Source: Candidatus Omnitrophota bacterium
Lineage (GTDB): Bacteria; Omnitrophota; Gorgyraeia; JAHJTE01
Direction of reading: 5' to 3'
Length of the DNA: 64,000 nucleotides
Assembly: GCA_018830005.1 (NCBI GenBank)
Contig: JAHJTE010000001.1
Span: forward strand, 257,332 to 321,331
Positions 6,312 through 29,772 of the stretch are shown here, piece by piece. The translations under genes were made by a program, and so were the position numbers. Positions within the stretch are counted from its first letter, which is position 1, and the number at the start of each line of letters is the position of its first letter. The notes under the pieces were generated by a model. The model saw nothing but the letters and a program-made list of their open reading frames with translations. It was not told the origin of the DNA and ran no database searches.

Positions 6312-6392
6312 CAAGATTAAATAAGCAATAAAGGAGGCTAAAAACAGGGATTGGGGGACACATTTTATCTTAGCAGCAGGATTACTAGAGAG

Positions 6393-6418
6393 TTGTGGCT
6401 ATAATAAGTCAGCCACAA
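6393..6418 (+). terminator. hairpin (8-bp stem ttgtggct / agccacaa, 10-nt loop) about 80 nt downstream of the GT4 gene; possible terminator
   Basis: Perfect inverted repeat read directly from the sequence; the following tract (gctactctgttttgtcgg) is only moderately T-rich. Confidence 0.3.
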
Positions 6419-6594
6419 GCTACTCTGTTTTGTCGGTTATTGATAGAATTCCGGCGTACTTTCATCGCGTCTATGCCCATATCTTAGTGGATTAGCCAAA
6501 GATATTAGATGCAGCCATAGAGATATTTACAGGAATAAAGACCGGCGTAAATGAGGACTCTTATGAATACAAGAGGATCAAGGAAGATGAGTCT

Positions 6595-7016
6595 ATGTTA
6601 AGAGGTTATCTAAAAGATGCCAGAAAAATAATTATAGAGAACGAAAATTTAATAAGAGGAACAAATCCAGATCTGCGTCAGCGTCTTAGAGAGGCTGGCT
6701 ATAGGATAGCCCTGGTACCAGAAACCTGGGCATATCATCCTGCGCCAGGTAACTTCCTTGAGTTGATAAGTGTTTTTTTAAGAAAGGCATATGTTCAGCT
6801 TGGGTTTTCAAGAATTATCCAGAGTTGGTTTATGAGGCGCCTATCCATGAGCAGTCTCAATTTGTGGGTGAGGTGAGTCTGCGATATAGACTACAGCGAC
6901 ATCTTAAGATCATGTTTAAATCTTTTTTTTCTTTAAAATTAATACTTTTAGCCGTTGAATTAAGTTATAGCACAGGTTATGTCATTGGTTTATTGAGACC
7001 TCGGAGGCTGCAATAG
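6595..7016 (+). pseudogene. GT2 glycosyltransferase remnant (C-terminal third only, frameshifted)
   Basis: The 93-aa ORF (NLIRGTNPDLRQRLREAGYRIALVPETWAYHP) matches the GT2 C-terminal block (ED-x-DLCLRLRKAGYKIVYVPEA-x-VYH) but has lost the ED dyad. The hydrophobic tail continues in another frame (6825-7016). No N-terminal GT2 domain is present in the upstream 280 bp. Confidence 0.5.
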
Positions 7017-7027
7017 ATAAACTTAAT

Positions 7028-15476: not shown

Positions 15477-16606
15477 ATAAACAGAATATCTTATACATAA
15501 CCGAATCTGCAGTGTTAGGTGGGGCTGAAATTAGCCTCTTTGAATTAATTACTAATCTTGATAGGGAAAGATTTAATCCCTTTATCATCTGTTCCGAAGA
15601 AGGTCCGTTAATAGAGAAATTCAATCAATGGCAGATTCCGAACGCAGTAATCCCTTTATATCGGGTACGCCAAATTAGCTTTTGGAGGTTTTTAAAGTCT
15701 GTAAAGGAGCTAGTCAAATTTTTAAAGACCAATGAGATTAAGCTTGTGCATACAAATAGTACTAGAGCAAATTTCCTTGGTGCCTTAGCTGCGAGGATAG
15801 TAAGAGTTCCTGTAGTTTGGCACGTGAGAAACCTAGTAGCCCCGAGCCTTTTTATAGATTTAGAAAAATATTTCACTTTTTTGCCTGCGGCGATTATTAC
15901 GAATTCGCATGCTACAGCAAAGAGGTTTCCTCATGCACAAAAGAAGGTAACCGTGATTTATAATGGCCTAGATCTTAGAGTCTTTAATCCCGGAATTAGT
16001 AAGGATACTTTACACAAGGAATTTAATATAAGCCTAAAGACAAAAATTGTCGCTGTTGTAGGAAGGTTGGGGCCGGGTAAAGGTCAAGAGGTATTTTTGC
16101 AGGCCGTATCTTTACTTAAAGAAAAGGTGCAAGATGTGAAGTTTTTTATTGTTGGGAGTGCTGGTTATGAAAAAGATGTCCCAATAGAGGAATCCCTAAA
16201 GACTCAGATAAAATCCTTGGGCCTTGAAAAAGATGTTATTTTTACTGGATTTCGTAAAGACAGATCCGAGGTTATGGCCTCAATTGATATATTGGTTAGC
16301 CCTGAGTCTATTACCGGTCAGGCATTTGGTAAGGTTTTGGCCGAGGCACAGGCAACAGGCGTGCCAGTTATCGTCACAGATGCTGGGGCAGCGTCGGAGG
16401 TAGTAGAGAAAGATGCAACTGGGATATTAGTTCCAATGAGGGATGCGACATCGCTTGCTGAGGCAATAAAATTTCTGTTGGATAATGAGGAATTATCTAA
16501 TAAGATGGGTCAAGCGGGTCGTGCTAGAGCAGAAAAATTATTCAATATTAAAGAAACGACCAAAGAGATTGAGCAAATTTATATTGATTTATTAAATAAG
16601 GCATAA
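15470..16606 (+). CDS. glycosyltransferase GT4
   Basis: Glycos_transf_1 C-terminal domain (SPESITGQAFGKVLAEAQATGVPVIVTD). Confidence 0.8.
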   Translation: MLDKQNILYITESAVLGGAEISLFELITNLDRERFNPFIICSEEGPLIEKFNQWQIPNAVIPLYRVRQISFWRFLKSVKELVKFLKTNEIKLVHTNSTRANFLGALAARIVRVPVVWHVRNLVAPSLFIDLEKYFTFLPAAIITNSHATAKRFPHAQKKVTVIYNGLDLRVFNPGISKDTLHKEFNISLKTKIVAVVGRLGPGKGQEVFLQAVSLLKEKVQDVKFFIVGSAGYEKDVPIEESLKTQIKSLGLEKDVIFTGFRKDRSEVMASIDILVSPESITGQAFGKVLAEAQATGVPVIVTDAGAASEVVEKDATGILVPMRDATSLAEAIKFLLDNEELSNKMGQAGRARAEKLFNIKETTKEIEQIYIDLLNKA

Positions 16607-16610
16607 CTTA

Positions 16611-18065
16611 ATGAACAGACTAAGGTTAATTATTAAAAATACCGCAGGTTTCCTTGGTTCGCTTATCTTTAATAGGTTTTTAAATTTTTTAGTAACAATT
16701 ATTCTAGTTCGTTATCTGGGCCCCAAAAACTTAGGTCAATATACTTTCGTCTTGACCTTTGCCGGTCTGTTTGCTCTGTTTTGCGATTTGGGTATTGGTC
16801 AGTTAGTAACCCGAGAGGTTAGCCAAGATAGGACGCGTGCAGGAAGTTTTCTAGGAAATTACCTTTCTCTACAACTGCTACTTTCTTCAGTTGTTGTGGT
16901 TGTAATGGTCATTGTTATAAACCATTTTCAATATCCACATATAATAAGGTTGGCACTTTATATCACTGGTCTGAATTTATTGGTTGTTTCTCTCGCGCAA
17001 CCTTTTTTCAATATTGCGATAGCCTTTGAGAAATTACGCTTCACAGCTATTGCGAGTATTATCGGCAATATTTTTTATTGTTTGAGTTTGCTGGCTGCCG
17101 TTTTCTTCCGCAAAGGTCTATTAATTTTAGTCTCGGTCAGCTTAGTAACCAGTATCTTAGAGTTTTTTTTGGTAGCATTTATATGTTCAAGATTCTGCGT
17201 CAAACCAATTTTTAAATTTAATAAACTTCTTTGGCTTACTGTGGCACGGTTTTTTCTTCCCTTTGCATTATATATTGTCTTTACTGGTCTTTACAGGCGC
17301 ATTGATATCGTAATGTTATCGAGAATGAAGACAGATATAGCTGTGGGTTTCTATGGCGCCGCCTATAAGATTATTTATTTATTTATTTTAATTCCCACAA
17401 GTTTTTCCAGGGCAGTATTTCCACTCTTAAGCCAGCAGGCAGCTGAGGATAGGATTAAACTTTCCCAGACTGTTTCCTGGTCCATGAAATATTTACTCGC
17501 TCTAGGCTTTCCTATAGCTATCATTGGAAGTTTTTTCTGCCGAGAGATAATATTGCTTCTTTTTGGCCCTGAGTTCCTGAATTCAGCCGTAGTTTTAAAT
17601 ATACTTATTTGGGTACTCGTTTTAGTCTTCTGGCATTCAATTTTAAGCCAGGCCCTAATTGCTATTAAAAATATGCTTGCAGTAGTCTCTGGTACAATAA
17701 TTGCTTTTATACTTAACGTAGGATTAAATTTCTTATTGATTCCTAAATATAGCTATGTGGGCGCAGCCGCCACTACCGTTTTTTCTGAACTTTTTATAGG
17801 GCTTTGGTTCTATTTATCTTTAAGAAAAATATTGCCTTTAAAGTATTCTTTATATGATTTCTTAAAGATTGTTATAGCTAGTTTAATTATGATTTTATTA
17901 TTTCAGCTTACGTATCAGTTTTATTTTTTAATTGTCATTACACTAGGGATTGTTTTCTATATAATTGCACTTTACCTGCTGCATTTTATAGGGCGAGGAG
18001 AGAGAGTACTTCTGAAGGAGGCGTTTGCTAGAAAAGATGGTTTGTTCAAAAGGGATGCGATTTAG
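16611..18065 (+). CDS. Wzx-like polysaccharide flippase (second copy, MOP family)
   Basis: 484 aa, about 12-14 TM segments; N-terminal LVRYLGPKNLGQYTFVLTFAGLFALFCDLGIGQ typical of the polysaccharide biosynthesis protein family. Confidence 0.7.
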   Translation: MNRLRLIIKNTAGFLGSLIFNRFLNFLVTIILVRYLGPKNLGQYTFVLTFAGLFALFCDLGIGQLVTREVSQDRTRAGSFLGNYLSLQLLLSSVVVVVMVIVINHFQYPHIIRLALYITGLNLLVVSLAQPFFNIAIAFEKLRFTAIASIIGNIFYCLSLLAAVFFRKGLLILVSVSLVTSILEFFLVAFICSRFCVKPIFKFNKLLWLTVARFFLPFALYIVFTGLYRRIDIVMLSRMKTDIAVGFYGAAYKIIYLFILIPTSFSRAVFPLLSQQAAEDRIKLSQTVSWSMKYLLALGFPIAIIGSFFCREIILLLFGPEFLNSAVVLNILIWVLVLVFWHSILSQALIAIKNMLAVVSGTIIAFILNVGLNFLLIPKYSYVGAAATTVFSELFIGLWFYLSLRKILPLKYSLYDFLKIVIASLIMILLFQLTYQFYFLIVITLGIVFYIIALYLLHFIGRGERVLLKEAFARKDGLFKRDAI

Positions 18066-19209
18066 AAGCATAGCTCGTAATATAAAGAAACTCTATTATA
18101 TAGTTTTGGGCCTTTTTGGCGATATGCTATTTTTCTTAATGCGTATTTTAAGGATAATTTCTAAGCCGAAACCTTTTTTGTCTGAAAATATTAAGAGAAT
18201 TTTAGTAATTCGTCTAGATCGAATTGGAGATGTGGCTTTAACTACCCCGGCACTCAGGGCCTTACGTGAAAGTTTTACTCATGCAAAAATTTATCTTTTG
18301 ACACGTTCCTATGCTAAGGATTTAGTCGTAGGAAACACTGATATTGATGAGCTTTTAATTTTTGATGATAAGACGTCATTTTTTATTGAGATAATGAAAA
18401 AGGCAAAGGTCTTGAAAGGTAAAAAATTTGATTTGGCCATAGTCCTAAACCCTAATTTTTGGTCAAATTTTCTTAGTTTTGCGGGTGGAGCTATACACAG
18501 AGTAGGTTATGATGTAGCAGGATCAGGCTTTTTTTTGACGAAGAAAATCCAGGATAGGCGAGCGCAATATCCACGTCATGAAGTCGAAGTAAATCTTGAG
18601 GTAGTAGGTTCGATAGGTGCACATACCAATGATAAGAGTTTGGTAATATCTATAAGCAAAGAGGGGGAAAGTTTTGCTCAAGACTTTTTAAAGAATAATA
18701 ATATAAGTTATGGTGATGCATTAGTTGCCATACATGCAGGCGGCTTTTATCATTATACGCGTTGGCCAGCAGAGAACTTTGCTAAAGTTTGCGATTATCT
18801 AATTGAAAGATATAATGCAAAGCCGATTTTAGTAGGGAGTGCTTCTGAGCGATTTTTGTCAGAAAAAATCGTATCGCTTATGAAGAATCCCCCTATTGTT
18901 GCTGTGGGCAATACTAATCTAACCGGGCTTATTAGTTTGACTAAAAGATGTAAGTTATTTATTGGCAATTCTTCTGGGCCGATGCACATCGCCGCAGCCT
19001 TAAGGATTCCCGTTGTGGGTATTTTTGGAAATATAAGTCCTGTAGATAGCTTCAAGAATTGGGGACCCTGGGGAGAGGGCCACGTGATAGTTAGCAAGAA
19101 CTTAGACTGCACAAATTGCCAACCGGCTGATTGTTTAAGCCTTGATTGTATGCAATTAATAACGGTAGAGGATGTGCTAAAGGCAGTTGAGGAGCAGCTT
19201 GGGAAATAA
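18037..19209 (+). CDS. glycosyltransferase family 9 (heptosyltransferase-like)
   Basis: Contains ILVIRLDRIGDVALTTPALRALRE (the GT9 N-terminal signature) and C-terminal GNSSGPMHIAAAL. The start is uncertain: candidates are ATG 18037, TTG 18025 and ATG 18055, and there is an unusual N-terminal extension of about 50 aa. Confidence 0.75.
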   Translation: MVCSKGMRFRSIARNIKKLYYIVLGLFGDMLFFLMRILRIISKPKPFLSENIKRILVIRLDRIGDVALTTPALRALRESFTHAKIYLLTRSYAKDLVVGNTDIDELLIFDDKTSFFIEIMKKAKVLKGKKFDLAIVLNPNFWSNFLSFAGGAIHRVGYDVAGSGFFLTKKIQDRRAQYPRHEVEVNLEVVGSIGAHTNDKSLVISISKEGESFAQDFLKNNNISYGDALVAIHAGGFYHYTRWPAENFAKVCDYLIERYNAKPILVGSASERFLSEKIVSLMKNPPIVAVGNTNLTGLISLTKRCKLFIGNSSGPMHIAAALRIPVVGIFGNISPVDSFKNWGPWGEGHVIVSKNLDCTNCQPADCLSLDCMQLITVEDVLKAVEEQLGK

Positions 19210-20242
19210 ATTGAAGAAAATCACGGACATAAACAGTATCCTATTAGTAAATCTTGGTGGCATTGGCGATATACTTTTATCCATACCTGCGCTTAGGGCA
19301 CTGCGTGGCTTTTATAAAAAATCCACCATAACATTATTAACAACACCACGCTCTGTGGATTTGATGAAAGATTATCCCTACATAGATAAGATTATCCTTT
19401 TTAATCCAGGATTATGGCAAAAATTAAAACTGGTTTTTATTTTAAGCAGACTTCATTTTGACCTAGCAATAAATATGAGATCCTTAACTTCTTACTTAAG
19501 CAGTCTTAAGATGGCATCTTTATTTTTATTAGCTGGTGCAACTTACCGTGTTGGCCGAGATACCAATGCAAGGGGTTTCTTCTTAAATGAAAAAATTCCA
19601 GAGGACGATATTGCACAAATGCACGATATAGATTATTATTTCGAAATATTCAAGGTTTTGGGAGTAGAAGGTGAAGGTAGAAATATAGACTTAAAAGTTA
19701 ATCATGAAGATGCTAAATTTATTGATAGATTTCTGCTAGATAACGATGTTGGCCAAAATGATATTTTGATTGGCATAAATCCGGGTGGTACTTGGCCAAC
19801 GCGGCGTTGGCCAATAGAGAATTTTGTTAAACTAATTGAGTTATTGAGAAAAGAAAAAGACTTTAAAATAATAATTACCGGAGGCAAAAAAGAGCTAGAT
19901 TTGGCAATAAAATTAGTGAGCCTATCTAAGGTTGGTATCATTAATGCCACTAATAAGACGAATGTTGGCCAGCTTATGGCATTAATTAAAAGATGCAATG
20001 TCTTTATTTCCAATGACGCTGGCCCGATGCATTTAGCTGCTGCCTTAGCTACTCCTTTAATTGCTTTGTTTGGCCCCGGGGATATTACTCGCTATGACCC
20101 GCGTCGAATATCAGAAAAGGCAGTTGTATTTTATAATAAAGTCGATTGTGCGCCTTGTTTTAAGGTTAGATGCAGTTCTATGAATTGTTTTTCATCCCTG
20201 AGGCCTGAGGAAATATCTAAGGCGGCTTTAAAATTAGTATGA
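19187..20242 (+). CDS. glycosyltransferase family 9 (heptosyltransferase-like), tandem paralog
   Basis: Contains ILLVNLGGIGDILLSIPALRALR and C-terminal SNDAGPMHLAAAL. There is no in-frame ATG before the conserved motif, so a TTG start is required (19187, 19199 or 19211). Confidence 0.75.
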   Translation: MRSSLGNKLKKITDINSILLVNLGGIGDILLSIPALRALRGFYKKSTITLLTTPRSVDLMKDYPYIDKIILFNPGLWQKLKLVFILSRLHFDLAINMRSLTSYLSSLKMASLFLLAGATYRVGRDTNARGFFLNEKIPEDDIAQMHDIDYYFEIFKVLGVEGEGRNIDLKVNHEDAKFIDRFLLDNDVGQNDILIGINPGGTWPTRRWPIENFVKLIELLRKEKDFKIIITGGKKELDLAIKLVSLSKVGIINATNKTNVGQLMALIKRCNVFISNDAGPMHLAAALATPLIALFGPGDITRYDPRRISEKAVVFYNKVDCAPCFKVRCSSMNCFSSLRPEEISKAALKLV

Positions 20243-20256
20243 AAATAATATTTAAT

Positions 20257-20389
20257 ATTTACAAAAGATTTCGAATCCTCCTAGCATGCAAGGGCGAAGA
20301 AGGACAATATTTTTCAGGATATCTGCCCTCTAAGGTAAGGGATGAGTTCTTAAGCATATGTAAGAGGAAATCAGGTAGGATCCTAGAGA
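20257..20389 (+). repeat. duplicated 5' fragment of a SAM-methyltransferase gene (copy A)
   Basis: Bases 20301-20389 match 21691-21780 at about 94% identity (5 mismatches in 90 nt). The translated fragment IYKRFRILLACKGEEGQYFSGYLPSKVRDEFLSICKRKSGRILE matches the N-terminus of the methyltransferase at 21630 and ends exactly before motif I. Confidence 0.85.
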
Positions 20390-20457
20390 GGCAGTAGAGA
20401 CACTGCTATATAAGAGATAAATTAAAAAAAGCGTCTTTAAAAAACAAAAACAATATA

Positions 20458-21606
20458 TTGATTGTGAAATCATTACTTGTTACTTTTGATTTTCCCCCTA
20501 TAGTCAGTGGAATTGGCACTGTTTTTTATAATATCTGGAGGCTAATGTCTCCAGAAAATAACTTTATTTTAGCCCCCAAGGTAAAAGGGTATAAAATAAT
20601 AGACAGTAGCAGCGGATTGAGTATATTCCGTTACTTTAGTTTTTGTCGCTCTGCTTTTTTGAGAGCAGTCATTTTATTTTTTTATACCTTTTGGATAGTT
20701 CGAAAAAAAAGGATAGATATTATAGTTTGTGGCGTTCCTGTCAGCATAGGTTTAATCGGATTAGTATTTAAAAAGATAGCCAGATTACCTTATTGCGTAT
20801 TTTATTATGGTGGAGAATTAGAGAAATATAAAAGACGCAAAATCATTTTAAGGCTATTAGAGAGGGTCCTTAAGAACGCTTGTTTTGTCATTGTCAATAG
20901 CGAGTTTACGAGTAAAGAAGTGAAGAAATTTGGCATAGAGGAAGATAAAGTTATAAAGGTTACGCCTGGTGTAGATGTGCAGATTTTTAAGCCAGATTTG
21001 GATTGTTCTGATTTAAAAAAGCGTTTAGGCCTTGAGAACAAAAAAGTATTATTAACTGTATCGCGCTTGGTAGAACGCAAAGGGATTGATGTGGTTATTA
21101 AGGCGTTAGCGAGGCTTAGTGAGAAATTTCCTAGTTTAGTATATTTAATTGTAGGCAGTGGCGAACAAGAGGGTTATCTTAAAGCCCTTGTTGAGAAAAA
21201 TTCACTGAACAAGAACGTTATCTTTATCGGTAAGGTTACGAATGAAGACCTGCCAAAATATTATAATCTTTGCGATATTTACGTTATGCCCAATAGGAAG
21301 ACCCTTGGTGAAGAGATTATAGAAGGTTTTGGTATTTCTTTTATTGAGGCTTCGGCATGCGCTAAGCCTGTTATTGGTGGTAATTCCGGAGGCGCAGGAG
21401 AAGCTGTTTGGGATAAGCGTACTGGGTTTTTAATTGACTCTGAAGATATAGATGCACTTGTGCAAAGTATTACTTGTTTATTAGAGGATGAGAAGCAAGC
21501 GGGTGAACTGGGTAATACTGGGCGCAGATTGATGCAAGAAGAGTTCAGGTGGCAATATCGCGCAGATAGCCTCAAAAAGATATTAAGCTGTTGTCTTCAA
21601 AAATAG
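20458..21606 (+). CDS. glycosyltransferase GT4
   Basis: Contains EGFGISFIEASACAKPVIGG. Paralog of the CDS at 12411; TTG start with no Shine-Dalgarno sequence. Confidence 0.8.
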   Translation: MIVKSLLVTFDFPPIVSGIGTVFYNIWRLMSPENNFILAPKVKGYKIIDSSSGLSIFRYFSFCRSAFLRAVILFFYTFWIVRKKRIDIIVCGVPVSIGLIGLVFKKIARLPYCVFYYGGELEKYKRRKIILRLLERVLKNACFVIVNSEFTSKEVKKFGIEEDKVIKVTPGVDVQIFKPDLDCSDLKKRLGLENKKVLLTVSRLVERKGIDVVIKALARLSEKFPSLVYLIVGSGEQEGYLKALVEKNSLNKNVIFIGKVTNEDLPKYYNLCDIYVMPNRKTLGEEIIEGFGISFIEASACAKPVIGGNSGGAGEAVWDKRTGFLIDSEDIDALVQSITCLLEDEKQAGELGNTGRRLMQEEFRWQYRADSLKKILSCCLQK

Positions 21607-21629
21607 CAAAAAACAAATTTTGATTCAGT

Positions 21630-22295
21630 ATGAGTATATTAAGCCGTATATATGAGAAGCTTAGATTTTTAATTGCGCGTAAAGGCGAAAAAGGAGAGTA
21701 TTCTTCAGGATATCTGCCTTCTAAGGTAAGGGATGAATTCTTAAGCATATGTAAGAGGAAATCAGGTAGGATCCTAGAGATTGGTTGCGGCGAGGGACTG
21801 TTTATTATAAATTTATTAAAGAAAGCTAAGGGATTGAAGATATTTGGCGTTGATATTTTACGAGAAGGCCTACTAAATGCCAAAGAGAAATTAAAGGCCC
21901 AAGATGCTAAAGCAGTAAACTTAATTGAATCTAACGGTAACGAGCTTTGTTTTAAGGATAACACCTTTGATTATGTAGTATGTTTAAATACGCTTTTTAA
22001 TTTGCCTTCTTTTGAAAATGTAAAAGGAATTATTGCTGAATCTGTGCGCGTGGCTAAAAAAGGCGCAGAGATTATAGTAGATATTAGAAATAAGAATGAT
22101 CTAGTTACGTCTTTACGTTATAGATTTGTTAAGCTTTATGATTCAAAATGCGCTGTAGCGTTAAGACAATATGACCCACAAGAGATTATTGAAATTTTTG
22201 AGCAAAATAACGCCGAGGTTCTAGAGGTTTTACCTATTAGAGCTTTTTTTAACTTAACTGTCCCTATAACAATTATTAAGGCCAAGAAAAGATAA
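21630..22295 (+). CDS. class I SAM-dependent methyltransferase
   Basis: Motif I LEIGCGEGLF and acidic loop GVDIL. The bases 21645-21780 of this gene are copy B of the duplicated fragment. Confidence 0.7.
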   Translation: MSILSRIYEKLRFLIARKGEKGEYSSGYLPSKVRDEFLSICKRKSGRILEIGCGEGLFIINLLKKAKGLKIFGVDILREGLLNAKEKLKAQDAKAVNLIESNGNELCFKDNTFDYVVCLNTLFNLPSFENVKGIIAESVRVAKKGAEIIVDIRNKNDLVTSLRYRFVKLYDSKCAVALRQYDPQEIIEIFEQNNAEVLEVLPIRAFFNLTVPITIIKAKKR

Positions 22296-23482
22296 TGATT
22301 TTAAAAAAAGTTCCTATAGTTGCTACAGACTTTAATATCCCTGATATCTTTTCAGTCTTTAGGGGTTTTAAGGCCAAGGAAAGATTCGAGAAAGAATTAG
22401 CCGCCTCTCTAGGTTTAAAATATGTTTTTACTGTTGATTCTGGCACTAGCGCTTTTTATCTTATATTAAAGGCGCTATCTTCAACTTATCCGGATAAAAA
22501 AGAAGTTGTTTTGCCTGCCTATACTGCTGCCTCATTGGTTTTACCTATAAAAAGATTGGGCTTAAAAATAGTTCTCTGTGATATTTCCTTGGATACTTTT
22601 AACCTAGATATAGAAGGTCTTAATAATTTGATCTCAAAAAATACTCTCTGTGTAACTGTAGTGCATCTATTTGGCTTGGTCTTTGATTTAGAGGCTTTTA
22701 GTAGTATTATCAAACGAAAAGGGATAGATACTATTATCGTTGAAGATTGCGCTCAAGCTTTAGGCTCTTTCATAAACAAACGATCTGTTGGTTCTGGAAG
22801 CGATGTGAGCCTTTTTAGTTTTAATCGAGGTAAAAATATGTCTACTGCTTCGGGTGGTGCAATAGGCGCAAATGATGATAGGTTGGCCGATTTGATTAGA
22901 AAAGAGATAAACATCTTAAGGGGCCCGTCAATTTTTAATAAGTTTATGATTATTGTAAAACTTATTTTGCTTTCTTTGGTTGTAAGGCCACTTATATATA
23001 ATTGTCTTTATCACGTATTAAAGACCTTTAGAAGCACAAAGACACCTATGGATTTTTCTGTCTCAAATTATACAGATGTACAATCTAGGGTCGGATTATC
23101 TTTATTAAAGAGATTGCATCTTTTTAGTAAAGCAAGACATTCAAACGGCTCGTTTCTTTATGATTTATTAAGTAATAAGCAGGATCTTATTATTCCTCAT
23201 ATTCTTAATCTCAGCATACCAGCCTATAATCGTTTTCCTGTTATATTCAGAGATATCCAGGTAAAAAAGAGGATTAGGACAATTCTTTCTGAAGCAGGCA
23301 TAGATAGTTCAGAGATGTATGAGCAGCCTTTGCATTTTAAATTCAATCTCGGATATAAAAAAGGAGATTTCCCTAATGCAGAATTTATTGCTGAAAGGCT
23401 TCTTACGTTGCCGAGCCATCCTTTAGTAAATAAGGCTATGTTGAATTTAATGCGGAAAATTTTTGATGAAAATTTGCAATGA
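22295..23482 (+). CDS. DegT/DnrJ/EryC1/StrS-family PLP-dependent sugar aminotransferase
   Basis: Contains SFNRGKNMSTASGGAI (the family's S-F-H-x-x-K-x-l-x-x-G-E-GG-A Schiff-base lysine region) and DCAQALGS. TAATG stop/start overlap with the upstream methyltransferase. Confidence 0.8.
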   Translation: MILKKVPIVATDFNIPDIFSVFRGFKAKERFEKELAASLGLKYVFTVDSGTSAFYLILKALSSTYPDKKEVVLPAYTAASLVLPIKRLGLKIVLCDISLDTFNLDIEGLNNLISKNTLCVTVVHLFGLVFDLEAFSSIIKRKGIDTIIVEDCAQALGSFINKRSVGSGSDVSLFSFNRGKNMSTASGGAIGANDDRLADLIRKEINILRGPSIFNKFMIIVKLILLSLVVRPLIYNCLYHVLKTFRSTKTPMDFSVSNYTDVQSRVGLSLLKRLHLFSKARHSNGSFLYDLLSNKQDLIIPHILNLSIPAYNRFPVIFRDIQVKKRIRTILSEAGIDSSEMYEQPLHFKFNLGYKKGDFPNAEFIAERLLTLPSHPLVNKAMLNLMRKIFDENLQ

Positions 23483-24642
23483 GTCTGATTAAAAGCTTAA
23501 AAAGAAAGATTTATAAGGCTGCCAGAGAGCCGGCTTACGCCTTGGCTGTTTTAATAAAGAGATTCGCCTCCTTATTTAGTTATTATGTTTTTCAAGGTAG
23601 AAGCAGTTGGCCCGAGACGGTTTCTTTGTTTTTGACTTACCGTTGCAATTTGGCTTGTTCGATGTGCGGCTATTGGGGAAAGTGCGGCTCTTTGAAAGAT
23701 AAAAAGGAGGATTGCCTTAGAGAAGATTTGAATCTTCAAGATTTAGAAAAGATTATCGATGATATAGCAGGCCTTGCGCCGAATATTACTCTTTTTGGCG
23801 GAGAACCGTTTCTCTATCCAGACTGGCCGGTGCTTGTAAAATATATAAAAAATAAAGGATTGCGTTGTAATGTCGTTACTAATGGTACGCTCCTTGCCGC
23901 AAGAGAGCAGGAGGTAATCGATTCTGGTCTTGATGAAATTATTTTTTCCTTAGAGGGCACACAGGAAATTCATGATAAGATTACCAATACCTTAGGTTCA
24001 TTTGATAAGGCCTTTAATGCACTTAGTAAGATTGCAAAGTTAAAGAAAATGAATAATCTGAGGTTACCCAAGATTAATGTTGCCACTACAATTTCGGAAG
24101 ATAATTTCTCTAATCTTTATGAAATATTTAAGACAGCAGAAAAACTCTCACCCGATACTATAACCTTTCATCATCTCTCTTTTGTGGATAGAGAAAGCGT
24201 TGCCAAAACCAATCGGATACTTAAAGATAATTTTGGCATACTAAGCCGAGATTGGGAAGGTTTCATCAGGAATGAACTGCCAAAGATTGATACCGCTGTC
24301 TTAATTGAAGAGATTAAAAAGATAGAGAGTTACCCGAAGGCTTGCGGTGTGTTTTTCTACCCTGATTTTAGACAAAAAGAAATAATAGAATACTACAAAG
24401 ATTTTAATTTTAAATCAAAACAATTTGCCAATCGTTGCTTAAGTCCCTGGATGACTGTTTACATATTCCCTGATGGAAAGGTGGGCCCTTGCGAGGAGTT
24501 GAATATTTATTTTGGCAATATAAAGAAAGAAAGTTTTAAGGACATTTGGAATAATCAGCAGTTTTGCAAATTCAGAAAGATTTTAAAGAGAGAGAGAATT
24601 TTTCCAGTTTGTACTCGCTGTACTGAGTTGTATCGATTCTGA
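23479..24642 (+). CDS. radical SAM protein with C-terminal Cys-rich SPASM/twitch-like auxiliary-cluster domain
   Basis: Radical-SAM cluster motif C-N-L-A-C-S-M-C (C-x3-C-x2-C) with a following GGEP motif. The C-terminal region carries additional cysteines (C..PW...C at about 321, C at about 340, C-x2-C-x5+ in FPVCTRCTELY). Confidence 0.75.
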   Translation: MSLIKSLKRKIYKAAREPAYALAVLIKRFASLFSYYVFQGRSSWPETVSLFLTYRCNLACSMCGYWGKCGSLKDKKEDCLREDLNLQDLEKIIDDIAGLAPNITLFGGEPFLYPDWPVLVKYIKNKGLRCNVVTNGTLLAAREQEVIDSGLDEIIFSLEGTQEIHDKITNTLGSFDKAFNALSKIAKLKKMNNLRLPKINVATTISEDNFSNLYEIFKTAEKLSPDTITFHHLSFVDRESVAKTNRILKDNFGILSRDWEGFIRNELPKIDTAVLIEEIKKIESYPKACGVFFYPDFRQKEIIEYYKDFNFKSKQFANRCLSPWMTVYIFPDGKVGPCEELNIYFGNIKKESFKDIWNNQQFCKFRKILKRERIFPVCTRCTELYRF

Positions 24643-26504: not shown

Positions 26505-27069
26505 ATGAATCGAGTAAAAAAGACAATATCCAATGTTGTATTGATTCTTGGTTCATTTTTATTTGTCCTGTTTATACTTGAGGCTGGCGTAAGGATATTT
26601 ATTCCGGTTGTAAAGCCTGCGATGATTGTAAAAAAGGCCTCGCCGAAAAATCTGGAGAAACCCTTAGCATTTCTAGAGTCGTTCTTTGAAGGGACCTTTT
26701 TGCGCAAAGGCTTAGTCCGATTTAGGCAGGGACAGAACTGTCTGGAATTAGAGAGGTTGGGATATTACAAAAGAGGAACTCAAGAAAATAAATACCCTTG
26801 CTAAAGGCACCGACGTATCTTTTGTAGTAATACGTATACATTTTTTGTATGATGTTTATAATCGCGGCGAAGATCAAGTGAGTAAAATTTTAGCTGAATT
26901 TGCTAAAAAGAATAACATTAACGTATGTGATCTATTAACAGCTCTCAGAGAGAACAGGGGCAGCGATTTATATTATCCGGCAGATGGACACTGGAAGCCT
27001 CTGGCTCATAAATTGGCAGCGGAAGGGATTTATAATTACTTAGTTGATAAGAGCTTATTAAATAAATAA
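26505..27069 (+). pseudogene. SGNH/GDSL-like hydrolase paralog, internally deleted
   Basis: The 99-aa N-terminal piece (TM segment plus VRFRQGQ) and the 74-aa C-terminal piece (LYYPADGHWKP) align to the two ends of the intact 351-aa paralog at 28717-29772 (LGFRGQE and IDEIHMSPKG), but they lie in different frames and the central catalytic region of about 180 aa is absent. Confidence 0.55.
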
Positions 27070-27848: not shown

Positions 27849-28720
27849 ATGAAATCAAGATTATTAATTTACTTCAAGAGATCAGCTTTATTATTTATCG
27901 CTTTCAGTACAGTTGTTGCAATTTTATTCTTTATCTTTATCGCACCGCATAGAACCTTACCAATTTTAATGTACCATTCTATTTCAGCCGTTGAAGAGAA
28001 AAATAATCTGAGCCTGCCAAAGAATATTTTTGATAAGCAGATGCAATATTTGTCGAAAAATAATTATAAAATAATTTCTTTAAGCGAAGCTGCTAATTTG
28101 ATTAAACAAGGCTCGAGTATTCCAAATAATTTGTTGGTGTTAAACTTTGATGATGGCTATAGAGATTTCTATGGTCGGGCCTATACCATACTTAAAAAAT
28201 ATCAATTTAAGGCAACGGTTTTTGTAATTATTGATTCTCTCGGAGAAAAAAATAATCTAAGCTGGGAACAGGCGCAGGATTTAGCAAAAGACGATTTAAT
28301 AGATATTGGCGCCCATTCCTTAAGCCACAGAATTTTGCCTTTATTATCCCGCGAAGAAGCCAGGAAAGAAATTTTTCTTTCAAAATTGATTTTAGAGACA
28401 AGATTAAACAAAACTATAGAATCTTTTTGTTATCCTTATGGTGTGCTAGATGATTCCATAAAAGAGTTGGTTAAGGAGGCTGGTTTTGACCCGCTGTAGG
28501 TACTGCTTATCAGAAGGAGGAGTTTAAAGACGATGATATCTACACATTAAAAAGGGTATTTGTTTCCAAATTTTCTAAGTACCCACTTGTTTTTAGATTT
28601 ATGATTTCTGGTTATTATGTTCCTATAAGAGGATTCCTCCTAAGGCTATTAAATATAAAAACTCCGCGCGATTTTTACGCTGCAAAAAGACAAAAATCTT
28701 ATTTACTGATACAGAAATGA
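27849..28720 (+). pseudogene. polysaccharide deacetylase (NodB/CE4) with a -1 frameshift near 28496 (or an assembly error)
   Basis: The track ORF stops at 28499 after AGFDPL. The -1 frame continues as VGTAYQKEEFKDDDIYTLKRVFVSKFSKYPLVFRFMISGYY..., which aligns with the C-terminus of the paralog at 1040-2083 (NRHDEDIFLLKRLFIAEDNLAQFVYKISG). It ends with TGA at 28718-28720, forming an ATGA overlap with the next gene's ATG at 28717. Motifs LNFDDGYRDFY and IGAHSLSHRIL are present. Confidence 0.7.
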
Positions 28721-29772
28721 AAAGATTTACCAGTAGAAAAAAAGCCCTTTCGTATATATTAATAATCTTGTTATTTTTTCTTGTAGCAGAGGTAATGTTA
28801 CGCATACGCGAAAGAGTTAAAGCAAAAGAGACCCAGGTTTATGGACAAATTAATTTTTTTTCGTCCCATCCTTTTCTTAATTATGTGCTGAATCCAAAGA
28901 TAGCGAAGCATAATTCATTAGGTTTTAGGGGTCAAGAGATAGATATTTCTAAAGAGGAAAATATTTATAGAATATTTTGCCTAGGTGCATCTAGTGTCTA
29001 TGGTTCAAGGGTTTCCCCGGAAGAGTCCTATCCTTATTTTCTTAATCAGCTTCTAAAGAATACCGTTAAAAAGAAAGTACCCGATGTGATTAACGCCGGC
29101 GTGCCGGGATACACATCAGCTAATATTTTTTTATTATTTCAATTTCGCATTCTTCCTCTATCACCTGATATGATAATAATTTATTCTGGATTTAACGACA
29201 TATTTCCCAGGATTATGGGTAAGGGTGCCTTTGATTATTCAGATTTTAATATTGTTTGGAGGCCGATACCAGCTTTAAAAAGGGCTCTATTTAAAAGTAT
29301 ATTAGCTCAAAAGATTATTGGCCGAGTGGGAGAAAGATTAGGGATTGCTTTTTTAACCTGGCCGCCGCATATTCATGAAATTGTTCAGAAATGGCCATAT
29401 CAATATGTTACTGGTGATTATAAAAGGAATTTAGCGAATACGTCTGCGCAGATTTTCCAACGAAATATTTTGTCCTTGATTCAGCTTGCCAGGGCTAATG
29501 ATGTCGATGTTGTTTTAGTGGCTCAAGTTTTAGGTCCTGTAAAAGAGAGCAAATCAATATATGCTGAATTGGCTAAAGGAATTATGGAACATAACAATGT
29601 TATTCGTAATTTAACCCGCCAGACTGGTGTTTATTTAATAGATTTAGAAAGCATATTTCCAAGGCGTTCGGAGATGTTTATCGATGAAATCCATATGAGT
29701 CCAAAGGGAAATAAAATACGCGCTGAAATTATTTCAGAAACTATAGCAAAAATTATACAAGAGGATAATTAG
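28717..29772 (+). CDS. SGNH/GDSL-like hydrolase family protein, N-terminal membrane anchor
   Basis: Contains N-terminal GASSVYG (a GDS-like block I Ser), GFNDI, and a C-terminal D-x-x-H catalytic dyad (IDEIHMSP); 351 aa. Confidence 0.55.
   Translation: MKRFTSRKKALSYILIILLFFLVAEVMLRIRERVKAKETQVYGQINFFSSHPFLNYVLNPKIAKHNSLGFRGQEIDISKEENIYRIFCLGASSVYGSRVSPEESYPYFLNQLLKNTVKKKVPDVINAGVPGYTSANIFLLFQFRILPLSPDMIIIYSGFNDIFPRIMGKGAFDYSDFNIVWRPIPALKRALFKSILAQKIIGRVGERLGIAFLTWPPHIHEIVQKWPYQYVTGDYKRNLANTSAQIFQRNILSLIQLARANDVDVVLVAQVLGPVKESKSIYAELAKGIMEHNNVIRNLTRQTGVYLIDLESIFPRRSEMFIDEIHMSPKGNKIRAEIISETIAKIIQEDN

Follow-up and report, generated by a model that had tools for sequence, protein, structure and literature searches.

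The 64-kb stretch of DNA considered here (the window, always taken at its full length; GC content 38%, nearly all genes on the plus strand) stems from a metagenome-assembled genome (MAG) of the uncultivated phylum Omnitrophota and carries a surface-polysaccharide locus. Within this locus a truncated copy of the 5' end of a methyltransferase gene (20239..20397, plus strand) is found between the second of two heptosyltransferase-family (GT9) genes, GT9b (19187..20242), and an intact GT4 glycosyltransferase gene, GT4x (20464..21606; hereafter GT4), which is followed by the full-length methyltransferase gene, MT (21630..22295). On the evidence of its sequence, the remnant is a non-functional gene fragment of this neighboring class I S-adenosylmethionine (SAM)-dependent methyltransferase. 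We favor, with some reservation, the explanation that two diverged locus variants were once joined illegitimately (i.e. without homology) and that the fragment is the scar of this one join. That the locus goes back to two variants, and how a tract within the remnant came to be homogenised, are inferred here rather than shown. A previous sequence-only reading of this DNA had taken the fragment as a mark of locus remodelling, and this part of it is borne out, the fragment being a true MT 5' remnant.

The remnant and the resident gene form a direct repeat in which 20239-20389 corresponds to 21630-21780, the first 151 nucleotides (nt) of MT, without gaps, in register from the ATG and at an offset of 1391 nt. 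Over the full repeat 119 of 151 nt are identical, and the matches are unevenly distributed. The first 61 nt agree at 34 positions, 20300-20389 and 21691-21780 at 85 of 90, and the last 60 nt at 59; directly past 20389 and 21780 identity is at background (20/61). The near-identical duplicated 5' fragment described earlier is therefore real over its last 90 nt, although the copy is 151 nt long and not about 130 bp as had been stated. An exact run of 43 nt (20347-20389) is the sole repeat of at least 30 nt on both strands of the whole window. When counted by MT gene position, mismatches amount to 25/51 in positions 1-51, 5/24 in a transitional stretch (52-75) and 2/76 in positions 76-151, and the difference in density between the first and the last of these is highly significant (Fisher p = 2e-10). 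Both mismatches within the near-identical tract (20314..20389, plus strand) are synonymous.

Expressed as identity to the resident MT, the remnant scores 57% over nt 1-60 (20239..20298, plus strand), rising to 93% for nt 61-150 and to 98% for nt 91-150, whereas a recent tandem duplication should display copies that are uniformly near-identical along their whole length. Between MT orthologues of different MAGs, identity ranges from 55 to 82% in nt 1-60 and from 58 to 78% in nt 61-150, and the 57% of the remnant in its first 60 nt is thus at orthologue level. Moreover, the first 60 nt of the remnant are closer to the MT genes of three related loci, L004 (70%), L008 (68%) and L003 (67%), than to the resident gene. 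A copy decaying in place would diverge evenly and would not approach other lineages, and the 5' part of the remnant should therefore derive from a different MT allele. This profile identifies the repeat as a mosaic, not a simple recent duplication, and suggests that the 3' tract was made identical by a homologous event. The divergent-to-identical transition (52-75) is located in the stretch coding for KGE.GEYSSG (GEYSSGYLPSKVRDEF-coding), the most conserved DNA of the MT 5' region and therefore the likeliest site for a crossover or a conversion endpoint. A chimerism test for nearest-neighbor switching along the live MT gave no signal among six sequences at 54-77% identity.

The remnant starts with an ATG of its own (20239) that forms an ATGA (20239-20242) with the overlapping TGA stop of GT9b, and its open reading frame (ORF) consists of 50 MT codons, RQ and a TAG stop at 20395-20397. 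To call the copy untranslated, as the sequence-only reading did, is thus not simply correct, and this 52-codon ORF is probably translated by coupling to GT9b. The same 4-bp overlap joins GT9b to the full-length MT in L003, L004, L005 and L007 (four of five sister loci, and wherever GT9b occurs), and the remnant, which keeps it, therefore occupies the ancestral MT position. Homology (20239-20389) breaks after codon 50 (..RILE / IGCGEG), where the glycine-rich SAM motif begins, in agreement with the earlier description of a similarity that stops before SAM motif I in a fragment that ends in a stop codon. In blastx over 48 amino acids (aa) the remnant matched the MT of L004 at 71% (E = 6e-20) and that of L003 at 69% (E = 1e-18). 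The whole Rossmann/SAM domain, from the motif I glycines onward, is missing. The full MT matches Pfam Methyltransf_25/11 from about residue 48, and the 52-aa product, which displays no Pfam match, should be inert as it lacks the SAM-binding fold. Within the transitional stretch the remnant also carries E23Q and S25F, two changes at sites where the nine closest homologues (P0001-P0009) do not vary. These would be compatible with relaxed constraint, the remnant being too short for a ratio of nonsynonymous to synonymous substitution rates.

It could be hypothesized that the remnant is a functional element, either as a selected 52-codon small protein or because the repeats are a selected switch that deletes GT4 and restores a GT9b-coupled MT. 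The ORF start codon is kept at the translationally coupled position, and judging from the geometry, a hybrid MT of 666 nt would result, in frame, if the repeats recombined. However, the ORF has lost the catalytic fold and changed two invariant residues, it is a singleton without separate-gene homologues and is present in no sister locus, and the MT 90% cluster holds no deletion-variant MT. We consequently regard a functional element as very improbable. Hardly more plausible is a narrower version, in which GT4 is a cassette prone to deletion through the in-register, in-frame direct repeats (43 nt exact, 90 nt at 94%) and the remnant is maintained for a one-way glycan switch. RecA-dependent or slippage recombination would in that case excise GT4 and, by the same event, restore a 221-aa hybrid MT coupled to GT9b, as in the L005 type. 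If such excision were frequent, it would provide an uncultivated, possibly host-associated Omnitrophota lineage with a built-in one-way switch for glycan variation. No sigma-70-like promoter or intrinsic terminator signal rose above shuffles between 19.8 and 22.0 kb. The gap between GT9b and the mechanical GT4 ORF measures 215 nt; it gave no Rfam match at E <= 1, and RNA folding of the GT9b-GT4 spacer was not unusual (z = -1.5).

The second element of our explanation, the join itself, is located at 20389|20390, where MT nt 150 meets a sequence that resembles the end of GT9a, the first GT9 gene of the locus (18025..19209). In the third frame, which differs from that of the MT remnant, 20388..20420 (plus strand) encodes EAVETLLYKR followed by TAA. 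This candidate tail probably, though not conclusively, represents the final ten codons of a GT9a gene that belonged to another variant of the locus. The C-terminus of GT9a reads ..VLKAVEEQLGK in the window, ..VIKAAETLLNKIQINKN in L004 and ..VLKAVDVQLNRIISK in L008, in each case followed by the stop, and ..VLEAAEGLLRKNN.. in L005; the candidate tail resembles the L004 end, KAAETLLNK... Over 62 homologues the family ending can be written as [DE]V..A[AV]E..L..K followed by a few more residues. Compared as DNA, the candidate aligns with GT9a 3' ends and has AGGCAGTAGA exactly in common with L008. Its best ungapped BLOSUM score of 29 was equalled by 5 of 400 random window segments and by 9 of 400 shuffles, and in a search with a hidden Markov model of the GT9a tail the peptide ranked 13th among 4152 six-frame peptides, matching the last nine model positions. 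The stop of the candidate tail is found 43 nt 5' of the GT4 start, across an AT-rich spacer (20421..20463, plus strand), and the GT9a-GT4 spacers of L004, L007 and L008 are 14-40 nt long. If 20388-20420 is a GT9a tail, the DNA to the right of the break would be [GT9a tail]-spacer-GT4, as in sister loci.

The remaining junctions of the region are tight and native-looking, GT9a and GT9b being 1 nt apart or overlapping and GT4 and MT being separated by 23 nt, and consequently only one scar is required. A candidate GT9b-tail remnant 5' of the live MT (21607-21629) was also considered; it showed 9/12 matches beside the ATG and about 53% over 17 AT-rich nt with no protein similarity, and was rejected as not significant.

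The sequence-only reading had proposed that GT4 arrived by homologous recombination into a resident MT gene. This process alone cannot give the observed structure, since the left junction (20389|20390) is non-homologous. A purely homologous insertion of a cassette containing GT4 and the MT 5' end, for instance by Campbell-type integration of a circle through the 90-nt homology, has some attractive features. In-register direct repeats bracket GT4, one crossover with a circle would indeed leave the homology in two copies, and the divergent-to-identical transition falls in the most conserved coding stretch, where a crossover is expected. Nevertheless, such a circle must already hold the MT|GT9a-tail join, so that the illegitimate step is merely moved to an earlier time. 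Neither transposase or integrase genes nor insertion sequence (IS) ends or att-like inverted repeats were found in or beside the GT4 segment, and the genes of 16.6-25.8 kb are all biosynthetic. No inverted-repeat pair brackets GT4, and the direct repeat, being 151 nt of coding DNA, does not represent a target-site duplication. Taken together, we consider insertion by homology alone unlikely.

Comparison with related loci places the join in a stretch of variable gene content. Across six related loci the genes between GT9a and MT vary, whereas the module 3' of MT, consisting of a DegT-family aminotransferase and a radical SAM/SPASM (rSAM) gene, is conserved across all of them and was used as context anchor. 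L005 and L006 display GT9a-GT9b-MT-DegT-rSAM, L004 GT9a-GT4-GT9b-MT, L007 GT9a-GT4-formyltransferase-GT9b-MT, L003 GT9a-DegT-GT87-GT2-MT paralogue-GT9b-MT, and L008 GT9a-GT4-GT4z-MT. Within the GT9a-to-MT stretch GT4 is lacking from L003 and L005, is upstream of GT9b in L004 and L007, and stands between GT9b and MT only in the window, the arrangement of which was found in no sister locus compared. The expectation that GT4 varies between sister genomes is thereby confirmed, as its location differs or it is missing here. To the resident protein, the eight closest MT homologues show 58-69% identity; seven of them have 221 aa and one (P0008) has 208 aa. In L003 a second intact 221-aa MT paralogue (L003 8302-8967) is found directly upstream of GT9b, in addition to the downstream MT, which we regard as a further sign of MT sequences joining in rearrangements at these loci.

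The divergence of GT4 does not single it out. Between the window GT4 and its counterpart immediately 3' of GT9a in L004, L007 and L008, identity is 56-57%, and the other genes compared with L004 range from 52 to 69% (flippase 54%, GT9a 56%, GT9b 52%, DegT 56%, rSAM 68%, MT 69%); GT9a orthologues in sister loci show 54-61%. GT4 thus behaves like an orthologue that sits in another place rather than a foreign import. Among more distant Omnitrophota, it is located directly 5' of MT-DegT-rSAM in L014, L153 and L154, and is fused to MT in L009, by which the GT4-MT adjacency of the window appears natural. In L009 (1-1497; GCA_043817875.1) the GT4 orthologue and the methyltransferase form one ORF of 498 aa, followed by DegT and radical SAM genes, and this ORF may encode a natural GT4-MT fusion protein. 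The sequence-only reading had treated GT4 as the incoming piece. Our results add complexity to that proposal, since with GT4 diverged like the other locus genes, with its adjacency to MT widespread, and with a mirror scenario that fits equally well, the incoming piece is not assignable.

The sister loci also bring up an origin in situ. A tandem duplication in an L004-like ancestor (GT9a-GT4-GT9b-MT) could have copied the stretch that begins with the GT9a tail and ends at MT nt 150, after which the first GT4 and the second GT9b would have been deleted. The starting order is present in the closest relatives, L004 and L007 (in L007 with the formyltransferase between GT4 and GT9b), the window GT4 is orthologous to theirs at the same divergence as the other genes, and the duplication would create exactly the MT150|GT9a-tail junction. 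However, three events are needed, two of which are precise deletions that would have to leave native-looking tight junctions. In addition, the copies should start out identical, yet the first 60 nt of the remnant are only 57% identical to the resident gene and closer to L004, L008 and L003, and the tail of the remnant (AVETLLYKR and stop) differs from that of the resident GT9a (AVEEQLGK and stop). Neutral decay would neither shift a copy toward other lineages nor leave a 76-nt tract at 97%. A tandem duplication that was later trimmed, as had been put forward in the sequence-only reading, is disfavored by this 57% identity and by the two further precise deletions, and we consider it improbable.

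According to the explanation that we favor, a join of two locus variants, variant 1 would have been organised as GT9a-GT9b-MT with the ATGA overlap (L005 type), with an MT that begins MKIIFNIYKRFRILLAC.., and would have been broken after MT nt 150. Variant 2, organised as GT9a-GT4-MT, would have been cut some 30 nt short of the GT9a end. On its other side the exchange could have been resolved by ordinary homologous recombination in the shared conserved flanks, and the product would be GT9a-GT9b-[MT codons 1-50]-[GT9a tail]-GT4-MT, with both transferases in a new order. Either variant may have been the recipient. In one direction, [GT9a tail-GT4-MT..] would enter a variant-1 chromosome and break its MT; in the other, [..GT9a-GT9b-MT 1-150] would enter a variant-2 chromosome and replace most of its GT9a, and the two directions fit equally well. 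The near-identical 76-90 nt would stem from a second, homologous event, which could be later gene conversion between the copies or a subsequent homologous replacement whose left crossover fell within the conserved stretch, where an older breakpoint would be another option; alternatively, the two alleles may already have shared a backbone from about nt 55 onward. As regards two sources, both the 5' portion of the remnant and the putative GT9a tail are as far from the resident copies as orthologues are from each other, yet GC is uniform over the junction (0.35-0.37 throughout), and the relatives are too few for phylogeny. The adjacencies of variant 2 occur separately, GT9a-GT4 in L004, L007, L008 and L013, and GT4-MT in L014, L153, L154 and L009.

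This explanation should be interpreted with some caution, as several observations weigh against it. The GT9a-tail call is based on about 10 codons, with an empirical p of only about 0.003-0.02. The exact variant 2 (GT9a-GT4-MT) was not found among the loci compared, and no close strain with either parental variant was found, so that the parents are hypothetical. An MT protein search for a close strain that lacks the scar or has a parental order returned 12 relatives, the nearest at 69%, and a scan of JGI metagenomes gave nothing above 38%. The 90% clusters of MT, GT4 and the remnant were all singletons, and a scan of GTDB genomes with a GT4 profile reached Omnitrophota loci at 57% identity or less. 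With the scar in every assembly recovered and no close strain lacking it among these relatives, the comparison lends no support to the recent event and the serotype switching of the sequence-only reading. Furthermore, the near-identical tract demands a second event or a pre-existing mosaic, and alleles that share MT from about nt 55 would make a clean homologous replacement easier. Finally, microhomology at the junction is not measurable without the parental sequences.

The source is a short-read metagenome assembly in which repeats can cause misjoins, and a chimeric join or a mis-resolved repeat has therefore to be weighed as well. We find such an artefact, which the sequence-only reading had named as a possible refutation, hardly credible, since the arrangement recurs in at least three assemblies. 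A 552-kb ENA contig, without a single difference from the window over 20.7 kb, carries the remnant, as does a second NCBI MAG (GCA_043815545.1) that differs from the window by 8 single nucleotide polymorphisms over 20.7 kb. An exact-sequence look-up recovered the remnant, GT4 and MT as consecutive protein accessions in two NCBI Candidatus Omnitrophota MAGs and also in JGI, and every assembly found shares the scar. The contig name implies an assembly k-mer of 141 (k141), and the longest exact repeat, with its 43 nt, is far shorter than this final k and shorter than a typical read. Moreover, the two copies differ at diagnostic sites. As a separate observation, six of the eight differences between the window and GCA_043815545.1 cluster at 15649-17000 (1.35 kb, in the upstream GT4 gene and the flippase gene) and could be a short tract of between-strain recombination, the remaining two being located at 28906 and 29521.

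The genes around the scar, all on the plus strand, are those named in the sequence-only reading, i.e. two Glyco_transf_9 genes, a GT4 gene and a class I SAM methyltransferase. A Wzx-like flippase gene (16611-18065) precedes GT9a, which matches Pfam Glyco_transf_9 at E = 1e-33. GT9b matches the same family at E = 4.5e-34 and probably starts at TTG 19211, which would give 343 aa and match the length of its homologues. GT4 matches Glycos_transf_1 (E = 6e-45) and also contains a Glyco_transf_4 domain, and the 221-aa MT matches Methyltransf_25/11 (E about 1e-16). The DegT-family aminotransferase and radical SAM/SPASM genes occupy 22295..24642 and are followed by another GT4 gene. Between the radical SAM gene and this downstream GT4 gene, L003 (13056-13445) and L004 (13053-13442) carry a gene of the PDDEXK_3 nuclease family (129 aa), which is absent from the window, where the two genes are 2 nt apart.

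The start of GT4x deserves a correction. The mechanical ORF begins at TTG 20458, and public gene calls use ATG 20545 (353 aa), which drops the conserved N-terminus KSLL(V/I)TFDFPPIVSGIGT. This segment is encoded from GTG 20464, where homologues have ATG at the same codon, and GTG 20464 is most likely the true start. The public call is consequently too short. The remnant ORF, annotated as 'hypothetical protein' in two NCBI MAGs (MBU2540555.1 and MFH1492679.1), should likewise be flagged as a pseudogene fragment.

Other genes of the cluster appear decayed as well. The gap at 6312-7027 (716 nt without a long ORF) contains at 6640-6789 a stretch of 50 aa with 52% identity to residues 152-201 of a 279-residue GT2 glycosyltransferase of L153, which looks like another glycosyltransferase remnant. 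At 26505-27060 a GDSL-lipase-like gene, intact in L004 (357 aa), is found in three pieces in different frames (residues 1-65, 230-251 and 251-353), a pattern that identifies it as a pseudogene that has lost about 165 aa internally and acquired frameshifts. The polysaccharide deacetylase gene at 27849-28690 is called at 216 or 176 aa, whereas L004 and L003 have 285-315 aa. In another frame, 28502-28690 encodes its C-terminal 63 aa (76% identical to L004), and the gene is probably frameshifted. We count these decayed genes in the same locus as support for the reading of the MT fragment as a remnant and scar.

The scar is a base-pair record of glycosyltransferase reshuffling in a polysaccharide locus of an uncultivated phylum, in which both broken gene ends would have been left behind. 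It brought GT9 and GT4 together in an order seen in no relative compared, and the stretch from GT9a to MT-DegT-radical SAM is a variable hot spot of this locus family. The cell should make GT9b and GT4 together, and a change of the glycan would be expected.

Known systems offer three points of comparison. In Salmonella, the group D2 O-antigen cluster arose from recombination between D1 and E, and remnants of wzy are found in B1 and D1 (PMC3715488). The locus described here resembles these clusters in being a surface-polysaccharide locus with conserved flanks and a variable glycosyltransferase center. Moreover, in both cases a truncated, non-functional piece of a neighboring gene marks the junction of blocks with different ancestry, which is presumed for the blocks in the window, with a gradient of identity at the block edge. 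In contrast to the Salmonella clusters, there is no IS or H-repeat at the junction. The Omnitrophota MAG is uncultivated and known from sequence, and its parental clusters were not found.

Homology-facilitated illegitimate recombination was reportedly described in 2002 by de Vries and Wackernagel and by Prudhomme et al. This type of recombination has been addressed in a conjugation study in E. coli (PMC3240628), and has been invoked as a model for the displaced orphan genes of type VI secretion system effector-immunity arrays (PMC5361080). As in that process, the structure in the window has one non-homologous junction with the other side presumably in homologous sequence, and a displaced leftover of the resident gene would be situated beside the new DNA. 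It differs in that the process is here deduced from sequence, and in that a near-identical repeat of 76-90 nt is not a standard outcome.

The sharp block of near-identity (2/76) within diverged homologues that are 1.4 kb apart in direct orientation is also what would be expected if gene conversion within the genome had acted on a pseudogene fragment and its live paralogue. The observation comes from a single genome, in which a pre-existing shared allele backbone would look alike. In conclusion, the phenomenon is a known kind of scar that reflects an ordinary route of surface-polysaccharide locus evolution, and no new mechanism has to be invoked.

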